DNA of 64,000 nt. Origin: a virus. Location of the stretch: positions 1-64,000 of the IMG/VR virus record IMGVR_UViG_3300029215_000002; one strand, 5' to 3'. The translations under genes and the position numbers were made by a program. The notes under the pieces are model-generated. The model made no database searches. It was not told where the DNA came from and was given only the letters and a program-made list of their open reading frames with translations. This document shows, in pieces, positions 1 through 22,224 of the stretch; the stretch's first letter is position 1, and every line of letters begins with the position of its first letter.

Positions 1-573
1 CATACCTCTCATACCGAAATCTGCACAAGCCATATTGCTAGATAATCCATCTGTTGTTTTGTCATACCAATAATCAGCAATCTTACGGTACATATAACCG
101 ACTGTCGCATGGCAACAAGGCTTCCACAACTCAACTTGAAGAAGGCATTCAATCCACTGAACAAGCCATGCAAATTTGTCATCTGTATTTGTAATTTCAA
201 TACAAGGAACACCCATTGGAACAAGCGTTCCTTCTGGTAATGCTCTAATTTTAAGTGGCAAATATCTTAATCTGTGAAGTTCTATAATCTTTGTTAAATC
301 ATAGTTACCCCAACCAATCTGTACATCCATTGATTCTGTGTAAATAGATATCATCTCATCTTCTGGTAAATCAAAGAATTCTTTCTGAAAATATTCTATT
401 AAATATTCTTTTATAAACGCTTGTAATCCAAAGAAAACCATTTTATTTTGATTTTCTAACATAGATTTTCGAGGCACCCAATATGAGACCAATTTAGTCA
501 ATCCCGTTGGATACATACGAGAATGACAAGCTTTATATGTATCTGATAATAATAAAGGCATTGTATTATTCAT
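1..573 (-). CDS. nadV: Nicotinamide phosphoribosyltransferase (NAMPT/NadV family), N-terminal part; the gene runs off the window start
   Basis: Translation from the ATG at 573 (minus strand) reads MNNTMPLLLSDTYKACHSRMYP...IRALPEGTLVPMGVPCIEITNTDDKFAWLVQWIECLLQVELWKPCCHATV...ADFGMRGM. It aligns along its length with human/bacterial NAMPT (DSYKVTHYKQYP; IKAVPEG; NWIETILVQSWYPITVATN; DFGYRG). GGAGG RBS upstream. No stop within the window. Confidence 0.8.
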   Translation of the reverse strand, partial: MNNTMPLLLSDTYKACHSRMYPTGLTKLVSYWVPRKSMLENQNKMVFFGLQAFIKEYLIEYFQKEFFDLPEDEMISIYTESMDVQIGWGNYDLTKIIELHRLRYLPLKIRALPEGTLVPMGVPCIEITNTDDKFAWLVQWIECLLQVELWKPCCHATVGYMYRKIADYWYDKTTDGLSSNMACADFGMRGM

Positions 574-579
574 AATTCT

Positions 580-1410
580 TTAAACCTCCATAACTGTAAT
601 TTTTTCATGACTGCCATTGAACAAACTATTTGTAGTGAACAACCTGTTCACTGTATTATTCTCTAAAGATTTGATTAATGTTCCCTTTTCTTTATCAAGA
701 ATTGAATTCTCTGTATGTGTAGCATATGCATAAATCTCAGTTACTCCATGTTTTTTCAATTCTTCTGCGCTATAGTATAGTGAACCACCATAGGCTATAA
801 TGTCATCGATCATTAATACAGCTTTATTACTCAAATCAATACCATTTGTTCTAATATCTAATCCAAGAATTTTACCAGTCTTCCAATCTCTTTTCTTTTC
901 ACCATAACACCATGGAAGTTCAGGAAATAAATCAGAATATTTTTTAGAAGCGCCACTATCTGGGAAATAAAGTACAAGATTTCTCATACCGATTTTAGAA
1001 ATTACCTTATCAACATACTTCTTTGGGTCTTCTTTAGCGCAATTATTAAGTAATGCTGTAGAAACATCGCTATGAGCATCTAAAACATAAACTTGCTGAA
1101 AATGAAGGTTATTAATTACTTCACAAAAATATTTTAATGTAAATACTTCACTAAAATCTTTTGTTCTATCCATTCTAGCATTTGGAATATATGGTAATTT
1201 CAAATATCCTTCTCTACCATGTTCATCCATCCATCTTTTAATCATTATTAGATACATTAATTCATCGTTACTTTCATATAACCAAGTTACGGTGTTATAT
1301 TTATTTTTTGAAAGTTTAGAAAAATCAATATTTATTCTTGGTGTTCCATCTGGAAATTTATTAATTTTAATTATATAATTATCAATTTTAATCATATTTT
1401 TATTCTCCAA
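580..1410 (-). CDS. Ribose-phosphate pyrophosphokinase (Prs)-like protein, 276 aa; possibly an ADP-ribose pyrophosphokinase (Adps-type)
   Basis: Prs family motifs: FPDGTPRINI (compare FSDGEVQINI), YIPNARMDRT (compare YYGYARQDRK), PRTase loop VLMIDDIIAYGGSL, IYAYATHTENS. About 40 aa shorter than canonical Prs. The ribose-5-phosphate loop DTAGT is replaced by AYGGS. Confidence 0.7.
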   Translation of the reverse strand: MENKNMIKIDNYIIKINKFPDGTPRINIDFSKLSKNKYNTVTWLYESNDELMYLIMIKRWMDEHGREGYLKLPYIPNARMDRTKDFSEVFTLKYFCEVINNLHFQQVYVLDAHSDVSTALLNNCAKEDPKKYVDKVISKIGMRNLVLYFPDSGASKKYSDLFPELPWCYGEKKRDWKTGKILGLDIRTNGIDLSNKAVLMIDDIIAYGGSLYYSAEELKKHGVTEIYAYATHTENSILDKEKGTLIKSLENNTVNRLFTTNSLFNGSHEKITVMEV

Positions 1411-1933
1411 TCACATTAATCTGACAACTCTTCATAATTTCCATAGCAGCTTTATGTTTTTCAGGTGTTGAACCAGCACAACAATTTGCATCTACTATGA
1501 TTTCTGCATCTGGATATAGTGTTTTAATAATAAGAGCATTTGTAATTACACAGATGTCAGAATCTAATCCACAAAGTTCTATTTCAATATTCGGGTCACA
1601 AGTATACAAACAACACGCTAATTCATTTTTCCAATCGAAGTATCCAAATGTTGCCTTATCAATAACTTTATAATCACTTGGAACTACTTCAAGTCCAATA
1701 TTCCATCCATGTGTTCCTTTGATACAATGAGGAATAGGAAGTTTTTTACCTTCAGATGTATCTAAATAATTTTTTTGATGAGTATCTCTTGTAAAAATAA
1801 TCTTATATCCATTCTTCTGATACTCTGAAATTTTCTTTTTTACTCTAGGGACAATAGCTTTTGCCTCTTCATTCCCTAAGACACCATCAATAAAATCATT
1901 TTGTAAATCTACTATAATTAATAATTTATTCAT
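1400..1933 (-). CDS. Nicotinamidase/pyrazinamidase PncA-like cysteine hydrolase (isochorismatase family)
   Basis: LIIVDLQNDF, RDTH and PHCIKGTHG (metal-binding Asp/His set), the Lys in VIDKATFGYF, and the catalytic Cys in CGLDSDICV all align with M. tuberculosis PncA. Its 5' end overlaps the end of the Prs-like gene by 11 nt. Confidence 0.75.
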   Translation of the reverse strand: MNKLLIIVDLQNDFIDGVLGNEEAKAIVPRVKKKISEYQKNGYKIIFTRDTHQKNYLDTSEGKKLPIPHCIKGTHGWNIGLEVVPSDYKVIDKATFGYFDWKNELACCLYTCDPNIEIELCGLDSDICVITNALIIKTLYPDAEIIVDANCCAGSTPEKHKAAMEIMKSCQINVIGE

Positions 1934-2001
1934 ATTGTTACCTCTTTCTTTGTCTGTGTTTATCTTAATTTTTTGTCAACGAAACTGTCGTTTAGTATAG
2001 T

Positions 2002-2316
2002 CTATAATAGTTCTTCAATGCTCTTACTAACGGCTTCTCTAACAGCTTTTGTTCTTGCAAGTTTTTCTGCTAATTTATCACTTGTAATTTCAATAATTTT
2101 ATCTTTGTTATCCTCGAAAAAATCTTGAATATTATCATTAATCATATCTTTAATTTTTTGTGTATAATCGTAATTGGTTATATTTTTTCTGCCGACTAGT
2201 GCTTTTATACAATCATTTTTGATTGCGCCAGCTACTTGTTTCATAACATTATTTTCAATAGTTTGCTTGATTTTATCATCATCAATACTAATACCGAATT
2301 GTACGATATGTTCCAT
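2002..2316 (-). CDS. hypothetical protein (104 aa)
   Basis: ORF in the dominant minus-strand tiling; no recognisable motif. Confidence 0.45.
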   Translation of the reverse strand: MEHIVQFGISIDDDKIKQTIENNVMKQVAGAIKNDCIKALVGRKNITNYDYTQKIKDMINDNIQDFFEDNKDKIIEITSDKLAEKLARTKAVREAVSKSIEELL

Positions 2317-2353
2317 AAATTACCTCCTTTAAAAATTATGAATTCAACTACAC

Positions 2354-2914
2354 CTACAAAACTTCATCAACAATTCCATACTTGACTGCTTTATCAGAAT
2401 GAATATAAAAATTTTTCTTCTTTTCACGAATTTCCTTAATATCGTCTTTTGTGAGATTGGTTCTGTCGATCACATATTCTTCAATCTTTTTATTCAGCCA
2501 GTCTATTTCTTTTCTATCTTCAACCAAATCCTGATATTTACCACTTCTCCAACAACTCATCTGATGATACATAAATATTGAATGCTTATAACAATATCTC
2601 TTATGACCTGCTAAGAAAATTTTAAAAGCTGCACTCATTGCATATCCTGTGCAATATGTATAGATTGGAGTTTTACTATTGAGAATGACATCAATCAATC
2701 CCCACATATCATAAACAGATCCACCATACGAGTTGATATACAATTTAATTGGTTCACGCCTATAATCTTTCTCTTTTTTATCCTTTTCATCATCAGATTT
2801 AATCAATCGTAAAATATTCCATGTTATACTTCCAACCGATTCATTATCTATGTCGTCAGATAAAAATAATATCCTCTCATCTGTGTTTGCATATATATTA
2901 TCTTTTGAATTCAT
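2354..2914 (-). CDS. clpP: ClpP-like serine protease
   Basis: ClpP catalytic context: INSYGGSVYDMWGLID, the Ser in TGYAMSAAFKIF, the His in MYHQMS, and the Asp in the YGIVDEV tail. Resembles the ClpP Ser-His-Asp triad regions. Confidence 0.7.
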   Translation of the reverse strand: MNSKDNIYANTDERILFLSDDIDNESVGSITWNILRLIKSDDEKDKKEKDYRREPIKLYINSYGGSVYDMWGLIDVILNSKTPIYTYCTGYAMSAAFKIFLAGHKRYCYKHSIFMYHQMSCWRSGKYQDLVEDRKEIDWLNKKIEEYVIDRTNLTKDDIKEIREKKKNFYIHSDKAVKYGIVDEVL

Positions 2915-2929
2915 AAAACCTCCTAATTT

Positions 2930-3181
2930 TTATAAGCATTTATCAATTTCTTTACGCAACTGACATAATACCTCGTATGCTCTATTGCCTATCTTAGATA
3001 CACTATCTTTTGGGTTATTTCTGTATTTAGAATTATTTATTAAATCTTCAATACCATTTGTAAGTATCAGAATAATTTTCTCTTGATTTTTATATCTTAT
3101 ATCATCAATTTGTGGGGCTCCATATGGTTCGCTATATCCTACAAACATTTGTATAACTTCCAACAATGATTCATTCACCAT
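2930..3181 (-). CDS. hypothetical protein (83 aa)
   Basis: minus-strand tiling ORF. Confidence 0.4.
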   Translation of the reverse strand: MVNESLLEVIQMFVGYSEPYGAPQIDDIRYKNQEKIILILTNGIEDLINNSKYRNNPKDSVSKIGNRAYEVLCQLRKEIDKCL

Positions 3182-3534
3182 TAAAATTCTCCTTCTGTAT
3201 ATGGCTTATCCCAACACTTTTTACAATCATTTTCGCACGAAACTTTCTTACTCAAATTCCCAACGCAAAGAAAAGGGTGTCTTTTCCACATTGAAGCGTT
3301 CGGGAACATTTTTAGAAAATGCTCTTTTCTAGTTTCTACCTGATGTTCGTCGCTCCATTTCTGAACAATTTCTATCGCTTCATCGGGATATGTTCTTTCA
3401 AACACTTCACATGGCAAGTCGGTCTTGTTATTGTCATTACTAATCGGACAATCTTCACAAGCTATTTCGCAATTCTTAATCATTCTATTCTTTTCTTTAA
3501 AATAATTTTCTGTGTATCCGCAATCAACTTTCAT
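3181..3534 (-). CDS. hypothetical Cys-rich protein (117 aa)
   Basis: Multiple CxxC-like pairs (CEIACEDCP; CENDCKKC); no family assignment. Confidence 0.45.
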   Translation of the reverse strand: MKVDCGYTENYFKEKNRMIKNCEIACEDCPISNDNNKTDLPCEVFERTYPDEAIEIVQKWSDEHQVETRKEHFLKMFPNASMWKRHPFLCVGNLSKKVSCENDCKKCWDKPYTEGEF

Positions 3535-3708
3535 TTTTCTATTCTCCTTTATTTAATATAATATTTTCTAAATGATTATGTGGGTAGGGATTTTCACCCT
3601 ACATGATTCTGCTCACACTACTTACTTTCCTATACCAGATTAGCTAATTAATCAGCTAACACAGAATCCTACCCTGTGTGTCTACATATTCCACCACCAC
3701 ATATTTTT

Positions 3709-4095
3709 TTAAAATACTGCTTCAAATCCAATACAAATGTATTTTTGTAATGCTTTTTTATCGTTATTACTGAATAACTGTCTCTCATCGACCAAAATAA
3801 GAGAACCATGTTTTACTCTTTTTTCCAACTGTATTGGAGTTATAACTATAGGTTGAAACTTTCTATAACACTCGCAAGCCCATTTAGCTGACATAATGTT
3901 TGATTCAATAAGAGGAATTTTGTATTTTCCACTAATCTTCATTAGATTATATGTTTTTCCAATTCCCCTACTGTTAAAATGATATAGCCTTTTTATATGT
4001 GTTTGCTTCTTCTTTACATAATACTTCAGCTCATGATATAATGCTTTTGATCTTAATAAATATGACCATGATTCTAATCGTTCATAAAATTTCAT
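3709..4095 (-). CDS. hypothetical protein (128 aa)
   Basis: minus-strand ORF. Confidence 0.4.
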   Translation of the reverse strand: MKFYERLESWSYLLRSKALYHELKYYVKKKQTHIKRLYHFNSRGIGKTYNLMKISGKYKIPLIESNIMSAKWACECYRKFQPIVITPIQLEKRVKHGSLILVDERQLFSNNDKKALQKYICIGFEAVF

Positions 4096-5182: not shown

Positions 5183-8100
5183 CTAACAAATTTTGTATTC
5201 AGAAATCCACCATTCCTGTTCATTAGTCTCTCGCCATTCACCATCAATTTTTTTCATCTTTGGTTTTTTATACTGGTTTGTGACTTTTACAATATCTCCA
5301 CGTCTAATAGGATTCTGTTTAAATATTTTCTTGCTAATTTTTACTGGAATCGTGTTGCCATTTGCCAGCGCATATAATTTCAATCGTGGCGAATAGTCAA
5401 CATTAATATCTTCCACAAAACAATAACCTGCATATTTTTTATCAATTATATCCATGTACCCAAGTACAGAATACCTAGCCAATAATCTTTCTTTAAAGGT
5501 TATTTTTTTATTAAAATTTTTAGTAACTTCTGATATGATTGCTTTTGCATCTATCTTCATAAACGTTTGAACTGTCTCTGATACGCAGTGTTTTCTAACT
5601 ACATCAAAATCTATCTCAAGTTTAAATGCCTTGTCCTTTTTTAATTGAGATAAAAACTTTTTATTCTTATAGAGTTGAAGGAATATATGAAGATAGTTGA
5701 GAAGATATTTTATATCACCAAAATCTGAAAAATACTCAATACCAATAAGGTCTTTTATTCTACTTTCTGCTATGCCTTTTTCTCTAAGAGCGACCAATAA
5801 AGAGCCAAAATCCTCAAACTTTTTTTGTCCTAATTCATACAATGTATTTGCTATAGTCATCGAAAAATTTTTTATAGATGAAAGAGACGGATTTATACAA
5901 CCTGCTTCTTTATCTACAGAAAATTTTCTATTATCCAAACCGAATTTATATGTACCAATTCGAATTCCTGCATATTTAAGCATTTCTATTTTGTATGCAG
6001 ATACCTTATCCTTATCTCCTTTGTCAGAATAATGTTGCATCATAATCGAATAAAACTCATAAGGATAATGTGCTTTACAATACGCTCCATAGACAGAATC
6101 AAAACCGTAACTTAGGGCATGTGAAGCATTAAAAGAATACTTCGATGCAGCTTCTATAATCTCCCATGTTTTTTCAAAGCCTTCATCAGTACCCACATTT
6201 TTTATCCAGCCGTTTAACAGTTTGGCTTTTAATTCGATTAATTCTTTTTCTTTAAACTTCTTTTTACTGATTTTCTTAATAATGGCATATGTTTCAGTCT
6301 GTTCAATACCTAACCATCCAAGATAAGTCATAATTGATTCCTGATACATCATATAATGAAAAGAATCTTTTAATAAATTATCTAATTCTGTTACACCAGT
6401 TGTATATGGAAGTCTATTTAAAAAATTATCCAACTGGGTTTTAAAACCAGGTCGTAGAGCTGCCACTAAAGAAGTGAGCTCCACCATGTTTTGTGGTTTA
6501 TATTGTTTACAACATTGCACACCAAAATTTGATTCGCATTGGTTTATGCCTAATGTACAACCACTAGAATACACGTCCCAAGTTTTTTTATCGTTTTCAA
6601 TTAGCTTTGTCATTTCAGGAACAGTTGGAGTCTTAACTCCTGCTGCTTTAAAAATGTTGTTAATAGTAAGCCAAATATCTACCTTTAGTAGATCATTTTT
6701 TACAAATTTATAATTTTCAGCAACCATTCCATCGATAACAGTCGTAATAACTTCTTTTTTAGTGGCTTCAGATTTACATCTAATTAAGCCAACTTCACGT
6801 CTTATGTCTCCGTCATATATTAAATACCCACAAGGTGCTTGTGATTTTGAATTAATAATTCCTCTATATTTTTTACTTTCATCAATATATTGCTTATATT
6901 TTTTATCCACAAAATCATATAAATCGATAGAATCTGTTGAATCATCATCTGTATGTTTTAAAGCTTTTTCATATTCTTTAATCTGACTCGTAATATCATT
7001 TGATATTTCGAAATCTAATCCTTGGGATTTTGCATACAATTTAAACGCAGATGATACTTGCAGAGGCTTGTATGAAATCATTGGATAAGCGTGTCCTTCC
7101 CCCATTACCTGCTTTTGTGCTTTTGCAAATATTTCTGGAGTACCCAGATTTAAATCCAAGTCTGGCAAACTCTTTGTCTTTAATATTCTCGTCTTTGAAA
7201 TAAACCTATCTGGATATAATTTAACAGGAGAAATAAAACGGTCAATATTACTAAACCCTAATAATGAATTAATATAATATGAAACGCCACTTCCTCTTCC
7301 TGTCTTTGTAATAATACCTCCATGAGATACTCCAATTTTTACAAGTTCATAGTCAATTAAAAAATAGTCAGACATTTTTGTTTCAATAATTGCATTTAAT
7401 TCATATTCAATGCCTTTTTCATATTCTTCATATCTTTCTTTTGGTATTGTATTTTTTATTTCATCCCACTTAGAATATACAAGATTTCGTAAGGTTGCAT
7501 CTCTCCATTCTTGTGATTTGCTTCCTACCCATTCACCATTAAAGAGATAATTCTTGGGTAATTTAATATTTTTATTCAAAACAATATCATCAAAATCCAA
7601 TAAAATATCTGTGTTATTAATACATTCATCTATTTGTTCATCATTCAAAATGCCTTGTACTTTTAATCTCCTTCTGGCTTCAGATTCATCAGGGTAATCC
7701 ATATACCACCCTTCTTCATCTTCATCATAGGAAATTCCTCTTCCTTCTAAATAATTATCTCGTTCTTCATGTTGGTCTGGATATATATAATGGCTATCAC
7801 AACCAAGTATAAGTTTGATTCCCAATTTATTATGTAGCTCAATAATTCTTTTGTTAATTTTTTTCTGGATGTCAGTGTCATGGTATTGAATTTCGAGGAA
7901 AAAGTTGTCACCAAAATGCTGAAACAACTTTTCTGTAATTTCTTCTATATCATCGTAAATCCAATATTTTAAACATGCCGTAGTCACCATTACATTTTGT
8001 GGTTTTACTTTTAATAAAAGTTCAATGTCTATTCTTGGTTGTCCATAAAATCCGTCTATGCTAGCAATTGAAAGGATTTCATTTATATCTCCACGACCTT

Positions 8101-8491
8101 CTTCATTTTTTGCTAACAAAACAATGTGACAGTTAGTTCTATCTTTGACAAATTCATTAGGAATTATATTTCCTGTTTTTTTATCAAATTTAGGGTATTC
8201 AGCTAACCTATCTTTTACCCAATAGGCTTCTGCTCCAAAAATAAATTTCAGTTTCTTTTTTCTATATTCATCTTCAGATAGCTCTCCACTATCTACTTTT
8301 TTATGAAGTGCATCATTATGTTTCTGCACTAATTCATATGGAACATAGTAATTGCTTTGATAGCCATGTTCTACACTGGAAATTACATTTTGTCCAAGTT
8401 CTATAGCTCTGTGGACATATTCATCATAAGAAGTTGCACAATCCCCAACTAACACATTGCTATATGAAGTATGTTTATGATAATTTTGCAT
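5183..8491 (-). CDS. dnaE: DNA polymerase III alpha subunit (DnaE-type, PHP domain + polymerase core), 1102 aa
   Basis: N-terminal PHP motif YHKHTSYS. GRGSGVSYYINSLLGFSNIDRFISPVKLYPDRFIS matches the DnaE GRGSAAGSLVAYxLGIT...ERFLNPER region. Size is consistent. Confidence 0.8.
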   Translation of the reverse strand: MQNYHKHTSYSNVLVGDCATSYDEYVHRAIELGQNVISSVEHGYQSNYYVPYELVQKHNDALHKKVDSGELSEDEYRKKKLKFIFGAEAYWVKDRLAEYPKFDKKTGNIIPNEFVKDRTNCHIVLLAKNEEGRGDINEILSIASIDGFYGQPRIDIELLLKVKPQNVMVTTACLKYWIYDDIEEITEKLFQHFGDNFFLEIQYHDTDIQKKINKRIIELHNKLGIKLILGCDSHYIYPDQHEERDNYLEGRGISYDEDEEGWYMDYPDESEARRRLKVQGILNDEQIDECINNTDILLDFDDIVLNKNIKLPKNYLFNGEWVGSKSQEWRDATLRNLVYSKWDEIKNTIPKERYEEYEKGIEYELNAIIETKMSDYFLIDYELVKIGVSHGGIITKTGRGSGVSYYINSLLGFSNIDRFISPVKLYPDRFISKTRILKTKSLPDLDLNLGTPEIFAKAQKQVMGEGHAYPMISYKPLQVSSAFKLYAKSQGLDFEISNDITSQIKEYEKALKHTDDDSTDSIDLYDFVDKKYKQYIDESKKYRGIINSKSQAPCGYLIYDGDIRREVGLIRCKSEATKKEVITTVIDGMVAENYKFVKNDLLKVDIWLTINNIFKAAGVKTPTVPEMTKLIENDKKTWDVYSSGCTLGINQCESNFGVQCCKQYKPQNMVELTSLVAALRPGFKTQLDNFLNRLPYTTGVTELDNLLKDSFHYMMYQESIMTYLGWLGIEQTETYAIIKKISKKKFKEKELIELKAKLLNGWIKNVGTDEGFEKTWEIIEAASKYSFNASHALSYGFDSVYGAYCKAHYPYEFYSIMMQHYSDKGDKDKVSAYKIEMLKYAGIRIGTYKFGLDNRKFSVDKEAGCINPSLSSIKNFSMTIANTLYELGQKKFEDFGSLLVALREKGIAESRIKDLIGIEYFSDFGDIKYLLNYLHIFLQLYKNKKFLSQLKKDKAFKLEIDFDVVRKHCVSETVQTFMKIDAKAIISEVTKNFNKKITFKERLLARYSVLGYMDIIDKKYAGYCFVEDINVDYSPRLKLYALANGNTIPVKISKKIFKQNPIRRGDIVKVTNQYKKPKMKKIDGEWRETNEQEWWISEYKIC

Positions 8492-9371: not shown

Positions 9372-11288
9372 TTATTTATCTGGGAATTCATTGTCTATAG
9401 ACCTATCCATATATGGAAGTTTATCAGTATATACGTTGTTGTCCCACGCAAACTGCTTATCGTATTCTAAGTAATTTGTGTAAAATCTTCTTGAAACCAA
9501 ATCGTACCAAAGCCCGACTTGAACATCTGATTTACCAAACATTCTGTCTTTCATAACAGTTAGTACAACATCATAGTTTTTCCATTTACATTTAGTATCA
9601 GCTTTTTCTTTTTTAGATACCCTTCTTAGTCCAATAGACCTCATAGCAAGATTAATAATATTGGAACTGCCTGCAATATCGTACATTTCAATATCAGAAT
9701 TACTATCTTGGGTTTTTCTTGGATGTGCAATAAGAACAACTGCAACATTAAATTTAACTGCAAATTTTATTAGAAGATTAATAAAATTTGTCTGAGCTGT
9801 ATTTTTATCGCTTTCATCACACTTCAAATCTATCATCATTAGATTGTCAAGTACAATTAGTTTGCAACCAAATTTTCTAACACACTCTTCTGCTGATTTT
9901 AAAACAGATTCAAAATCATTTGATTCATCGTCTTTATAAATAAATAATTTTTTATTATAAAAACTCTGCATTTTCTTTTGTATTGCAAATGGTACAACAT
10001 AATATTTCTTCCCATTATTACTTTGTTTTTCTACCATATTTCTACGTCCAGCTATAATTGTATTGAACCAATTAGCAGATAAACGTTCTGGGAGTTCTTT
10101 GGAGTACAGAAATACAGGGTTTCCACCGTCAATAGTTTCTGCAATAGCTTGGTCAATTAAAGATGTTTTTCCCGAACCTGGTCGTCCAGATAAAATTGTA
10201 AGTGTTCCATAAAACAGTTTTACAAGCTCATCATCTAACGGCTTAATGCCAGTTTTTACTCCATCCATTTGAGAAACATCAAGTTCTTCAATTTCTGAAT
10301 AATCAACAACACTTTTTACAGGCACATCCTTTGCTTCGGAGATAAGATTCATAACAAAATCTTTACCGCCGACTTGTAGACAGTCATTAATATCTTTTAA
10401 CGGAACTTCCTTACCATTATCTTTTTTAAAAAATTCAGGTGTTGATATGTATTTTGTTCTCCAAGTTCCAAGACGATATATACATTCTTTTCTCATCTTA
10501 ATGCCAGGTTCATCATTGTCAGACCAAATAACAATTGAGTCAAAATTATTTAACCATTCCCAATTTTCTTCAATCCAATGAAGATTACCAGCTCCTAGGG
10601 GAACACTTACAGTATTAATATATCCTGCTTCAACAGCGCTTGCACAATCTGTTTCTCCTTCTGTAATAAGCAAAGGTTTTGAGGTATTGACTCTATTCAT
10701 ATTAAATAGAAGAGATGATGTATCAGAATCTTTTTGACACCACGTTTTAGATTGTCCTGAATGTTTTTCTATCGTTTTCGCTGGTCTATATTTAACCATT
10801 GTCAAAACATCATTTGTGTCATAAAAATTAAACACACCATTACCATGAGCATCTTCACGAATGTCAAGATAATCAATAACATTTTTTGATATACCACGCT
10901 TGCCCCAATAATCAATTACATGTTCTTTTCCGTTTATTGGTTCTTCGTGCGGGTATCTATAGTTACGACGAGTCTTTACATCTTTTTCACCAAAACTGTA
11001 TTCAATATTTGCTTCTTCGAATAGATGCTTGACAGCTTCTAAAAATGTATTTCCTTTTTCCATTAAAACATCGATAATATCCACTGTTTTATTGCAGCCA
11101 AAACAATGGAAGGTCTTGTTTTTCTTGTTATATATAAAGCTTGCTGTATCTTCACTATGATATGGGCAACAAGATTTTAAATTTTTTTCGTCAAAATTCT
11201 CTAATTCAAGTAGCTCTGCCATTAAAAATGCATTATTGTCACCAAGTTTATCTTTAGCTTTTTCAATGTCAGTTTTTTCAATTAACAC
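9372..11288 (-). CDS. Bifunctional primase-helicase (DnaG-type zinc finger + TOPRIM, fused to a DnaB-like helicase)
   Basis: CHC2 zinc finger CPYHSEDTASF...HCFGCN, TOPRIM ITEGETDCASAVEAGY, Walker A LSGRPGSGKTSLIDQ, and Walker B-like LIVLDNLMM. Confidence 0.8.
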   Translation of the reverse strand: MLIEKTDIEKAKDKLGDNNAFLMAELLELENFDEKNLKSCCPYHSEDTASFIYNKKNKTFHCFGCNKTVDIIDVLMEKGNTFLEAVKHLFEEANIEYSFGEKDVKTRRNYRYPHEEPINGKEHVIDYWGKRGISKNVIDYLDIREDAHGNGVFNFYDTNDVLTMVKYRPAKTIEKHSGQSKTWCQKDSDTSSLLFNMNRVNTSKPLLITEGETDCASAVEAGYINTVSVPLGAGNLHWIEENWEWLNNFDSIVIWSDNDEPGIKMRKECIYRLGTWRTKYISTPEFFKKDNGKEVPLKDINDCLQVGGKDFVMNLISEAKDVPVKSVVDYSEIEELDVSQMDGVKTGIKPLDDELVKLFYGTLTILSGRPGSGKTSLIDQAIAETIDGGNPVFLYSKELPERLSANWFNTIIAGRRNMVEKQSNNGKKYYVVPFAIQKKMQSFYNKKLFIYKDDESNDFESVLKSAEECVRKFGCKLIVLDNLMMIDLKCDESDKNTAQTNFINLLIKFAVKFNVAVVLIAHPRKTQDSNSDIEMYDIAGSSNIINLAMRSIGLRRVSKKEKADTKCKWKNYDVVLTVMKDRMFGKSDVQVGLWYDLVSRRFYTNYLEYDKQFAWDNNVYTDKLPYMDRSIDNEFPDK

Positions 11289-22087: not shown

Positions 22088-22117
22088 TTTCTTATTCTCC
22101 TTTCTTATTGTAAATAA

Positions 22118-22189
22118 CGGGGCTAATCGGATTCGAACCGATGAATGCAGAGATCAAAACCCTGTGCCTTACCACTTGGCGATAGCCCT
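22118..22189 (-). tRNA. tRNA-Gln: tRNA-Gln (anticodon UUG), 72 nt, no encoded CCA
   Basis: Hand-folded cloverleaf: acceptor AGGGCUA/UAGCCCC, D-arm GCCA-AGUGGUA-AGGC, anticodon stem CAGGG/CUCUG with loop UUUUGAU, T-arm AUCGG-UUCGAAU-CCGAU, discriminator G. Very similar to E. coli tRNA-Gln. Position 1:72 is an A·C mismatch. Confidence 0.8.
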
Positions 22190-22224
22190 ATATTTTGTGA
22201 TGAATTAACTCATCACAATTATTT

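Follow-up and report, generated by a model that had tools for sequence, protein, structure and literature searches.

A phage operon that joins PncA and NadE to Adps- and Namat-type genes suggests a nicotinate-routed version of NARP1

Depletion of nicotinamide adenine dinucleotide (NAD+) is among the commonest antiviral strategies of bacteria, and the NAD+-rebuilding phage routes known as NAD+ reconstitution pathways (NARP1, NARP1-AP, NARP2 and NARP3) have all been described since 2024. In NARP1, which takes ADP-ribose (ADPR) and nicotinamide as its presumed inputs, a gene of the Adps clade lies directly 5' of a gene of the Namat clade. NARP2 comprises Nampt and Nmnat, NARP3 comprises PnuC and a NadR-like protein, and the classical Preiss-Handler route runs through PncA, PncB, NadD and NadE. 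The operon described here lies at the beginning of a 64,000-nt stretch of DNA from a gut phage (positions 1 to 64,000 of IMG/VR record IMGVR_UViG_3300029215_000002, referred to as the window) and combines an Adps-type and a Namat-type gene with genes for a PncA-type nicotinamidase and, past the window edge, an NAD synthetase. We put at roughly 0.6 the probability that this operon encodes a deamidated version of NARP1, in which nicotinate would take the place of nicotinamide.

The operon and its gene products

The following features were identified at the window edge, all on the minus strand:

1933..1400, minus strand: gene for a PncA-type nicotinamidase of 177 aa, at the head of the operon (Pfam Isochorismatase, PF00857, 101 bits)
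1395..580, minus strand: Adps-type Prs homologue, 271 aa from its ATG (PHROG 619, 207 bits)
573..1, minus strand: Namat-type NAMPT homologue, N-terminal 191 of 486 aa, truncated at the window edge, includes residue A184
1934..2001, minus strand: spacer of 68 nt that precedes the PncA gene and contains, 7 nt ahead of the ATG, a Shine-Dalgarno-like GAAAGAGG

The original prediction, made from the sequence of positions 1-1933, described a unit of three co-directional, overlapping genes for PncA-like, Prs-like and NAMPT-like proteins. The family assignments held in Pfam, PHROG and NCBIfam searches, where the N-terminal transferase fragment matched NAMPT_N and NF006629 (163 bits), and the genes are indeed co-directional. 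The overlap was not retained with the ATG start of the Prs-like gene, which leaves gaps of 4 nt (PncA/Prs-like) and 6 nt (Prs-like/NAMPT-like), and arises only with an alternative TTG start at position 1410 that gives 276 aa. The 271-aa form is the one present in public gene calls; an exact-sequence look-up of the 276-aa form returned no record. No convincing promoter was found in the spacer; a promoter/terminator scan was uninformative, its sites being no more numerous, and its promoter-like sites fewer, than in shuffled sequence.

A unit of only three genes was not borne out either, as the operon runs on beyond position 1 of the window. Exact-sequence look-ups located both the PncA-like and the Prs-like protein on many metagenome contigs, one of which (ERZ27262643 k119_50224, hereafter L004) is 100% identical to the window across all 11,933 overlapping nt and was treated as its continuation. 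On L004 the operon has five genes, encoding PncA, Adps, a 486-aa Namat-like transferase, a 135-aa open reading frame (ORF) for a HAD-type phosphatase and a 252-aa NadE, and the same five genes were present on five further contigs. At the nucleotide level, a megablast search with window positions 1-4000 against 50,697 phage records gave no match, and relatives were reached by protein-level searches. L004 itself is 634 kb long, compared with about 145-165 kb for related phage contigs, and could be a concatemer, a misassembly or an element in a bacterial replicon.

The Prs-like protein had been predicted to be an ADPR pyrophosphokinase rather than a synthetase of phosphoribosyl pyrophosphate (PRPP), and comparison of profile scores agreed with that assignment. 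The window protein scored 240 bits on a hidden Markov model (HMM) trained on 80 Adps from two-gene loci of canonical NARP1, compared with 278 for the Adps of phage FADO and 212 for that of ICP1, both characterised by experiment, and 130 for E. coli Prs. The ICP1 and FADO sequences were taken from phage records, since solved-structure sequences gave only Prs entries and no Adps-named chain. The window protein fell under the cut-off of all 11 NCBIfam Prs models (TIGR01251, 84.9 bits versus 113), and it keeps the ICP1 Adps residues F18, R87, H121, D161, catalytic K185, R187, D212 and D213. Its ribose-5-phosphate loop, correctly read in the original prediction as AYGGS, lies in DDIIAYGGS and resembles DDLSSYGGT of FADO, whereas Prs enzymes have DD(M/I)IDT(A/G)GT (e.g., DDMIDTGGT). 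The protein is also shorter than housekeeping Prs at both termini, lacking the C-terminal helices as well as the N-terminal extension. By these sequence features it is assigned as an Adps and not as a PRPP synthetase.

An Asp-His-His metal site marks nicotinamidases inside the isochorismatase superfamily. The best solved relative of the PncA-like protein was the pyrazinamidase/nicotinamidase of P. horikoshii (1ilw/1im5, E 7.6e-15), with which the triad D9/K93/C128 and the metal-site residues D50/H52/H69, whose equivalents in 1ilw/1im5 we take to be metal ligands, align residue for residue. The predicted Asp/His metal site, lysine and catalytic cysteine are therefore present, and none of the six residues varied among 125 distinct, operon-linked homologues (43-100% identity). 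The NCBIfam PncA equivalog NF008623 matched weakly, over residues 1-56 only, with 27.7 bits where its cut-off is 174; a model for biuret amidohydrolase scored slightly above this and likewise fell far under its own cut-off. As the NF008623 cut-off was missed, the protein is a divergent member of its family, and its PHROG family has no assigned function.

The 252-aa product of the last gene is classed, from its profile matches, as an NH3-dependent NAD synthetase, NadE, scoring 176 bits against Pfam NAD_synthase and 170 bits against TIGR00552 (cut-off 63.65). It consists of one domain, without a glutaminase domain, and the SGGxDS ATP-pyrophosphatase motif was kept in about 127 of 128 homologues. 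Judged by their conserved residues, both PncA and NadE look functional.

Homologues of PncA (42-61% identity) or of NadE (34-45%) were also observed on nine human-gut phage contigs (L096-L104; MT836475, MT835946, MT836279, MT835800, MT835512, MT837495, MT836195, MT835706 and MT835572), with Adps and transferase absent within the fetched stretch. PncA and NadE may thus also serve phages independently.

The transferase pocket and its neighbouring genes

The third gene product was placed on the Namat rather than the Nampt side of its family, with 390 bits to PDB entries 9w5x/9w5w and 177 bits to human NAMPT. These entries are taken to be the SpβL1 Namat, with whose published residue numbering they agree. 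Through the Adps and Namat-type assignments, the predicted link to phage NAD+ reconstitution, and to NARP1 in particular, stands. The nicotinamide contacts D13, Y15, F189 and R192 of SpβL1 Namat and its ribose contact R306 are conserved in the window's transferase, and the catalytic residues H242, R306 and D308 were invariant in 16 transferase sequences of the same pocket type.

The canonical nicotinamide pocket was not conserved. In SpβL1 Namat, Asp215 (through a hydrogen bond) and Ala242 contact nicotinamide (PMC12774641), and in NAMPT the equivalent Asp219 hydrogen-bonds the amide and thereby designates nicotinamide as the substrate (PMC12143786; also PMC7096376). In the window's transferase, four pocket residues differ from those of SpβL1 Namat: Asp215 is replaced by Ser212, Ala242 by Ser239, Gly213 by Lys210 and His187 by Ala184. 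Alignment with human and mouse NAMPT gave the same correspondence (A184 = H191, K210 = G217, S212 = D219, S239 = A244). A184 lies inside the window; K210, S212 and S239 lie just beyond its edge and were read from the identical L004. D219S in human NAMPT is tabulated as a switch of substrate affinity (PMC4919578, citing Khan 2006).

An initial search for transferase homologues gave only relatives of at least 69% identity and was uninformative on diversity. A family search of 1.84 billion representative proteins yielded 3,622 members, of which the best 150 (50%-identity representatives) were typed. Among these, 95 carried Asp at the amide-binding position (motif H-G-D-A) and 53 carried Ala or Ser (motif x-(K/N)-(A/S)-S). 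The four pocket positions parted the two classes almost completely, and sequence clusters were type-pure.

The genomic context of the two pocket types was then tabulated with locally built HMMs, as follows (fractions refer to flank-complete loci where two numbers are given for the first two sets):

80 close IMG/VR relatives of the window phage: PncA and Adps in 76/76, NadE in 69/69
80 Ala/Ser-type loci from species-dereplicated genomes: PncA in 58/63, NadE in 47/53
249 Asp/Glu-type loci from IMG/VR and JGI metagenomes: PncA in 0, NadE in 0, Adps in 222/249

The gene order in the species-dereplicated set was always PncA, Adps, transferase, NadE. The same gene set was present in another order (Adps, transferase, NadE, PncA) in MT835544, in phAss-1, a distant phage (31-42% identity), and on a contig (P0140) from a separate Ala-type cluster. 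Close relatives of the P0140 query were absent from IMG/VR and JGI metagenomes, and the P0140 scans of these two collections were used as Asp-type controls; a further query, P0227, returned no viral loci. Altogether, these counts identify the arrangement with PncA and NadE not as a rarity but as the rule in a large clade that occurs in gut Clostridia and their phages.

Several loci departed from this arrangement. Two Oscillospiraceae-labelled loci (L138:9298-11479 and L169:446-2469) carry PncA directly followed by an Ala-type transferase with no Adps, and three loci with Saccharibacteria/Nanosyncoccus labels (L148, L155 and L159) carry Adps, transferase and NadE with no PncA. A 16-locus subclass has Glu at the amide-binding position (H-G-E-A) and a reversed order of transferase, HAD-type phosphatase (10/16) and Adps, with PncA in 0/16 and NadE in 0/16; loci of this subclass are L236, L241, L246, L250-L257, L259, L262-L266 and L272.

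Many transferase homologues were 550-1,100 aa long and aligned with the query as two or three blocks, with a break commonly near residue 315 (P0118, P0122, P0123, P0137 and many of P0121-P0270). P0137 has an HNH_3/AP2 region at its N-terminus, and one 646-aa form represents a cluster of 2,406 member sequences. From this pattern of matches, the long homologues look like carriers of inserted or fused homing-endonuclease or intein-like elements.

A nicotinate route and competing explanations

Four steps are proposed for the operon. PncA would turn nicotinamide set free by NADase defences into nicotinate and NH3, and Adps would convert ADPR and ATP to ADPR pyrophosphate (ADPR-PP). The Namat-like transferase would then join nicotinate and ADPR-PP to nicotinate adenine dinucleotide (NaAD), which the single-domain NadE would amidate with NH3 and ATP to give NAD+; the NH3 from the first step could be reused here. 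Every substrate and product in this scheme, along with the counter-defence role, is one that we infer from gene content and order, family membership, conserved catalytic residues and the association of the pocket with PncA and NadE. The original prediction had considered it odd that a nicotinamidase should be encoded beside a transferase that needs nicotinamide. In the nicotinate scheme this paradox would be removed, with PncA predicted to feed the transferase rather than deprive it. Amongst the explanations offered at that time, the nicotinate-based route gained support from the linkage of pocket, PncA and NadE; a hydrolase acting on an immune signal, or one removing nicotinamide as a product inhibitor, is not favoured.

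A number of observations weigh against the nicotinate route. We know of no NAMPT-family enzyme that forms NaAD from ADPR-PP. The route needs one ATP more than NARP1, and its advantage is unexplained; speculatively, charged nicotinate could be held in the cell better than diffusible nicotinamide, the detour could fit hosts running Preiss-Handler salvage, or the pathway could simply have been inherited from a host operon. The adenine clamp of the transferase is conserved in part. Of the two SCH residues, the equivalent of Phe392, F380, is conserved, and the position of the SCL residue Arg40 of SpβL1 is Met in the window's enzyme and Arg in 40/47 class members; the second clamp aromatic, Y396 of SpβL1 (SCH), is not clearly conserved, with an insertion of about 9 residues at that place. 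With this partial clamp, it is chiefly the neighbouring Adps that points to ADPR-PP, rather than PRPP, as the preferred substrate. Most members of the Ala/Ser class carry Ala, for which the corresponding human NAMPT mutant, D219A, is tabulated as a loss of activity (PMC4919578); the window's enzyme has Ser.

The association between pocket and neighbouring genes also needs to be interpreted with its sampling in mind. The Ala/Ser class consists of few clades, so that the counts are not independent, Fisher p-values overstate their independence and the perfect association reflects few evolutionary events. The genome scan for Ala/Ser-type loci used a peptide pattern that included Ser239 and was biased to that type; the scan thus indicates what such loci contain and not how frequent they are. 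Amongst the flank-complete Ala-type loci, 4 had no PncA, 6 had no NadE and 2 had no Adps.

An alternative is that the operon boosts Preiss-Handler salvage through PRPP, with the Prs-like protein making PRPP, the transferase making nicotinate mononucleotide, host NadD making NaAD, phage NadE finishing the route and PncA supplying nicotinate. The classical route begins with PncA and ends with NadE, the remodelled pocket would suit nicotinate equally well in this scheme, and SpβL1 Namat has been reported to accept PRPP as well in vitro. The partial adenine clamp and the two loci with PncA and transferase and no Adps (L138 and L169) also fit a PRPP-using enzyme. Against this, the Prs-like protein groups with the Adps of validated NARP1 operons and not with Prs, lacks the DT(A/G)GT loop and the C-terminal helices, and falls under all Prs cut-offs, while the transferase is far nearer to Namat than to Nampt. 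In addition, an NMNAT/NatV gene, which the original prediction proposed to look for beyond the window start, was not found: no adenylyltransferase family, and no NadD or NMNAT, was present among the genes of the operon or those called in the 9 kb downstream, and a NadR-like query, the one search made of the other 62 kb, was empty in the 64-kb window, which is part of a genome of roughly 150 kb. On this evidence we regard a PRPP-based booster as unlikely.

Slightly less probable still is an ordinary, nicotinamide-using NARP1 located beside a helper pair, in which PncA and NadE would boost host salvage through PncB and NadD or detoxify excess nicotinamide. Adps and Namat alone suffice in characterised systems, PncA and NadE homologues occur on phage contigs without nearby NARP1 genes (L096-L104), and a chromosomal version in Clostridium, described below, has no adjacent NadE. 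This explanation does not account for the co-change of four pocket residues, including the amide-binding Asp, which was seen only with PncA and NadE and at none of the 249 canonical loci, and a transferase that depends on nicotinamide would face competition for it from the co-encoded nicotinamidase.

Finally, the cysteine hydrolase could act on another amide, such as an immune signal that contains nicotinamide or derives from ADPR, or could be an unspecialised member of the isochorismatase family. Its poor score on the PncA equivalog, the slightly higher biuret amidohydrolase score and a PHROG family without assigned function would agree with this, yet it is very improbable given the invariant metal site and triad shared with the P. 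horikoshii enzyme and given the co-occurrence of NadE and a nicotinate-type pocket, a combination that a true nicotinamidase predicts.

Bacterial relatives, genomic setting and relation to known systems

The closest genome matches were metagenome-assembled genomes of Lachnospiraceae, Roseburia and other Clostridia. Isolates amongst the matches were Lachnospiraceae bacterium A4, Ruminococcus sp. AM36-2AA, Thomasclavelia cocleata and Pseudoruminococcus massiliensis; in Lachnospiraceae bacterium A4, a 792-kb scaffold (L110) carries a homologue of 80% identity. An Ala-type homologue was also located on the chromosome of many Clostridium species. For example, the C. beijerinckii chromosome (L436:5057-9470) carries NrtR, Adps, PncA and transferase genes in a row, with no adjoining NadE, and its Adps scored 283 bits on the Adps HMM.

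An NrtR-like gene (Nudix plus NrtR winged helix) flanks 37/80 of the Ala/Ser-type loci (e.g., L113:12207-13097); no NrtR was found near the operon of the window phage. In addition, Macro-domain genes lie between transferase and NadE in 15/80 of these loci (L139:11479-11955 and 14 others), and genes for NADAR (4 loci), PnuC (4) and NadR-like proteins (3) were found nearby. NrtR is described as an ADPR-responsive repressor controlling prs-nadV operons (Rodionov et al. 2008, PMC2330246). These observations suggest that the NrtR-linked genes of Clostridium are an ADPR-induced bacterial NAD repair operon and the source of the phage version. The NrtR-linked chromosomal form further suggests that bacteria recycle ADPR by this pathway, which bears on the origin of phage counter-defences.

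On the sequence comparisons taken as a whole, we lean slightly towards a wider proposal, in which Namat homologues with the Ala/Ser pocket would be nicotinate ADP-ribosyltransferases; combined with PncA, Adps and NadE, they would bring the number of NAD+ reconstitution pathways to four, the new one being a deamidated NARP1. This pathway would be native to Clostridia as an NAD repair operon under NrtR/ADPR control, and many gut phages would have acquired it as a counter-defence.

The 135-aa ORF between transferase and NadE encodes a minimal HAD-type phosphatase with DFDDT and DDR motifs. A profile of ten homologues matched PDB entry 2obb (labelled as a hypothetical protein; E 5e-9), and the protein is linked to the BT0820 family because the NCBIfam BT0820 HAD-phosphatase model matches the same proteins weakly. 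Proteins of this type (130-165 aa) fall in PHROG 1238 (label: 'phosphoheptose isomerase'). Examples were located as follows:

L003:12823-13230: HAD-type phosphatase
L004, just past window position 1: HAD-type phosphatase of the window operon
L190:5582-5983: HAD-type phosphatase
L236:7536-7949: HAD-type phosphatase

The gene was found in NARP1 operons of both pocket types: 48/249 of the Asp/Glu loci carry it, mostly with Adps on one side and Namat on the other, as do roughly one in four close relatives of the window phage in their own operons. It is probably an optional accessory that trims a phosphorylated ADPR derivative, and may stand in for the Macro-domain Adpp.

Upstream of the operon, the window carries the following genes on the same strand:

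2354-2914, minus strand: ClpP-like protease
5183-8491, minus strand: DNA polymerase III alpha, 1,102 aa
8500-9357, minus strand: PD-(D/E)XK nuclease
9372-11288, minus strand: DnaG-DnaB primase-helicase fusion
22117-22190, minus strand: tRNA-Gln (TTG), ordinary, the sole tRNA

The first four of these place the operon within the replication block of a large phage. In the other direction, beyond the window edge, a NUMOD/I-HmuI-like homing endonuclease gene directly follows NadE (L003:13983-15182), and a gene for a LigA-type, BRCT-containing DNA ligase that depends on NAD+ lies about 6 kb further downstream (L003:19849 onward). As this type of ligase uses NAD+, the phage is itself an NAD+ consumer. 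A scarcity of ORFs of at least 250 aa at 34-60 kb of the window raised the question of stop-codon recoding, which is known from phAss-1. Recoding was rejected, as reading through TAG or TGA hardly lengthens ORFs and the only tRNA is the ordinary tRNA-Gln.

The original prediction knew of no description of its three-gene arrangement, and we also found none. Searches for nicotinamidase, PncA or isochorismatase, for NadE or deamido-NAD and for nicotinic acid in connection with NARP1 returned no description in the searchable full-text literature, a coverage that excludes subscription-only papers. The arrangement was likewise not mentioned in the portions consulted of papers on NARP1-AP, RyDEP, Namat structure and Adps structure. 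In the phAss-1 record the first three genes are annotated by name and NadE is called hypothetical, and the phAss-1 paper tabulates 'Nicotinamidase' without discussion.

If the nicotinate route is correct, it would include a new enzymatic reaction, nicotinate + ADPR-PP to NaAD; to our knowledge, direct formation of NaAD from these two compounds has been described for no enzyme. It would also provide a natural case of a NAMPT fold that switches between amide and acid substrates, and would explain a very abundant gene set of human-gut phages and Clostridia, in which single 90%-identity transferase clusters hold 1,200 to 2,400 member sequences. For annotation, H-G-D-A can be used to denote the nicotinamide type and x-(K/N/G)-(A/S)-S the type that travels with PncA and NadE.

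Amongst the described systems, NARP2 and NARP3 are, like the proposed pathway, phage routes that restore NAD+ against NAD-depleting immunity. They differ in that the window's transferase is Namat-like rather than Nampt-like and that neither the genes of the operon and the next 9 kb nor, in a limited search, the remainder of the window yielded an Nmnat, NadR or PnuC. The prs-nadV operons under NrtR (PMC2330246) likewise have NrtR adjoining a Prs paralogue and a NadV homologue; the table of them in that report has no pncA and is composed of γ-proteobacteria and one Cytophaga species, whereas the Clostridium and phage form adds PncA (in phages also NadE) and an altered pocket.

The Asp-to-Ser change of human NAMPT D219S (Khan et al. 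2006, cited by PMC4919578 and PMC7096376) is at the site equivalent to S212. That enzyme is an engineered single mutant acting on PRPP; the change here is natural, accompanied by three co-varying changes and located in a Namat-type enzyme. With the Preiss-Handler route the operon shares the first and last enzymes, the deamidated logic and the amidation of NaAD as the last step. It differs in that Adps and a NAMPT-family transferase would replace PncB and NadD, such that the adenylate would come ready-made from ADPR and not from ATP via NadD.

Precedent for accessory enzymes that widen the inputs of NARP1 is provided by NARP1-AP, which adds the Macro-domain ADPR-1''-phosphatase Adpp (bioRxiv 10.64898/2026.01.28.702374). 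The accessories here, PncA and NadE, would act on the pyridine half rather than the ADPR half, and the phosphatase of the window phage is HAD-type (BT0820-like) and not a Macro domain. NARP1 itself (Osterman et al. 2024, bioRxiv 10.1101/2024.02.11.579819) is matched in the adjacency and order of its Adps-clade and Namat-clade genes on a phage, in the conserved Adps catalytic residues and Namat catalytic core, and in the presumed inputs, ADPR and nicotinamide from NADase action. Unlike NARP1, the window operon adds PncA and NadE and has Ser/Ala for Asp215, three further substitutions in the pocket and inserted residues in the clamp helix, and the predicted product of its transferase would be NaAD rather than NAD+, at a cost of one ATP more.

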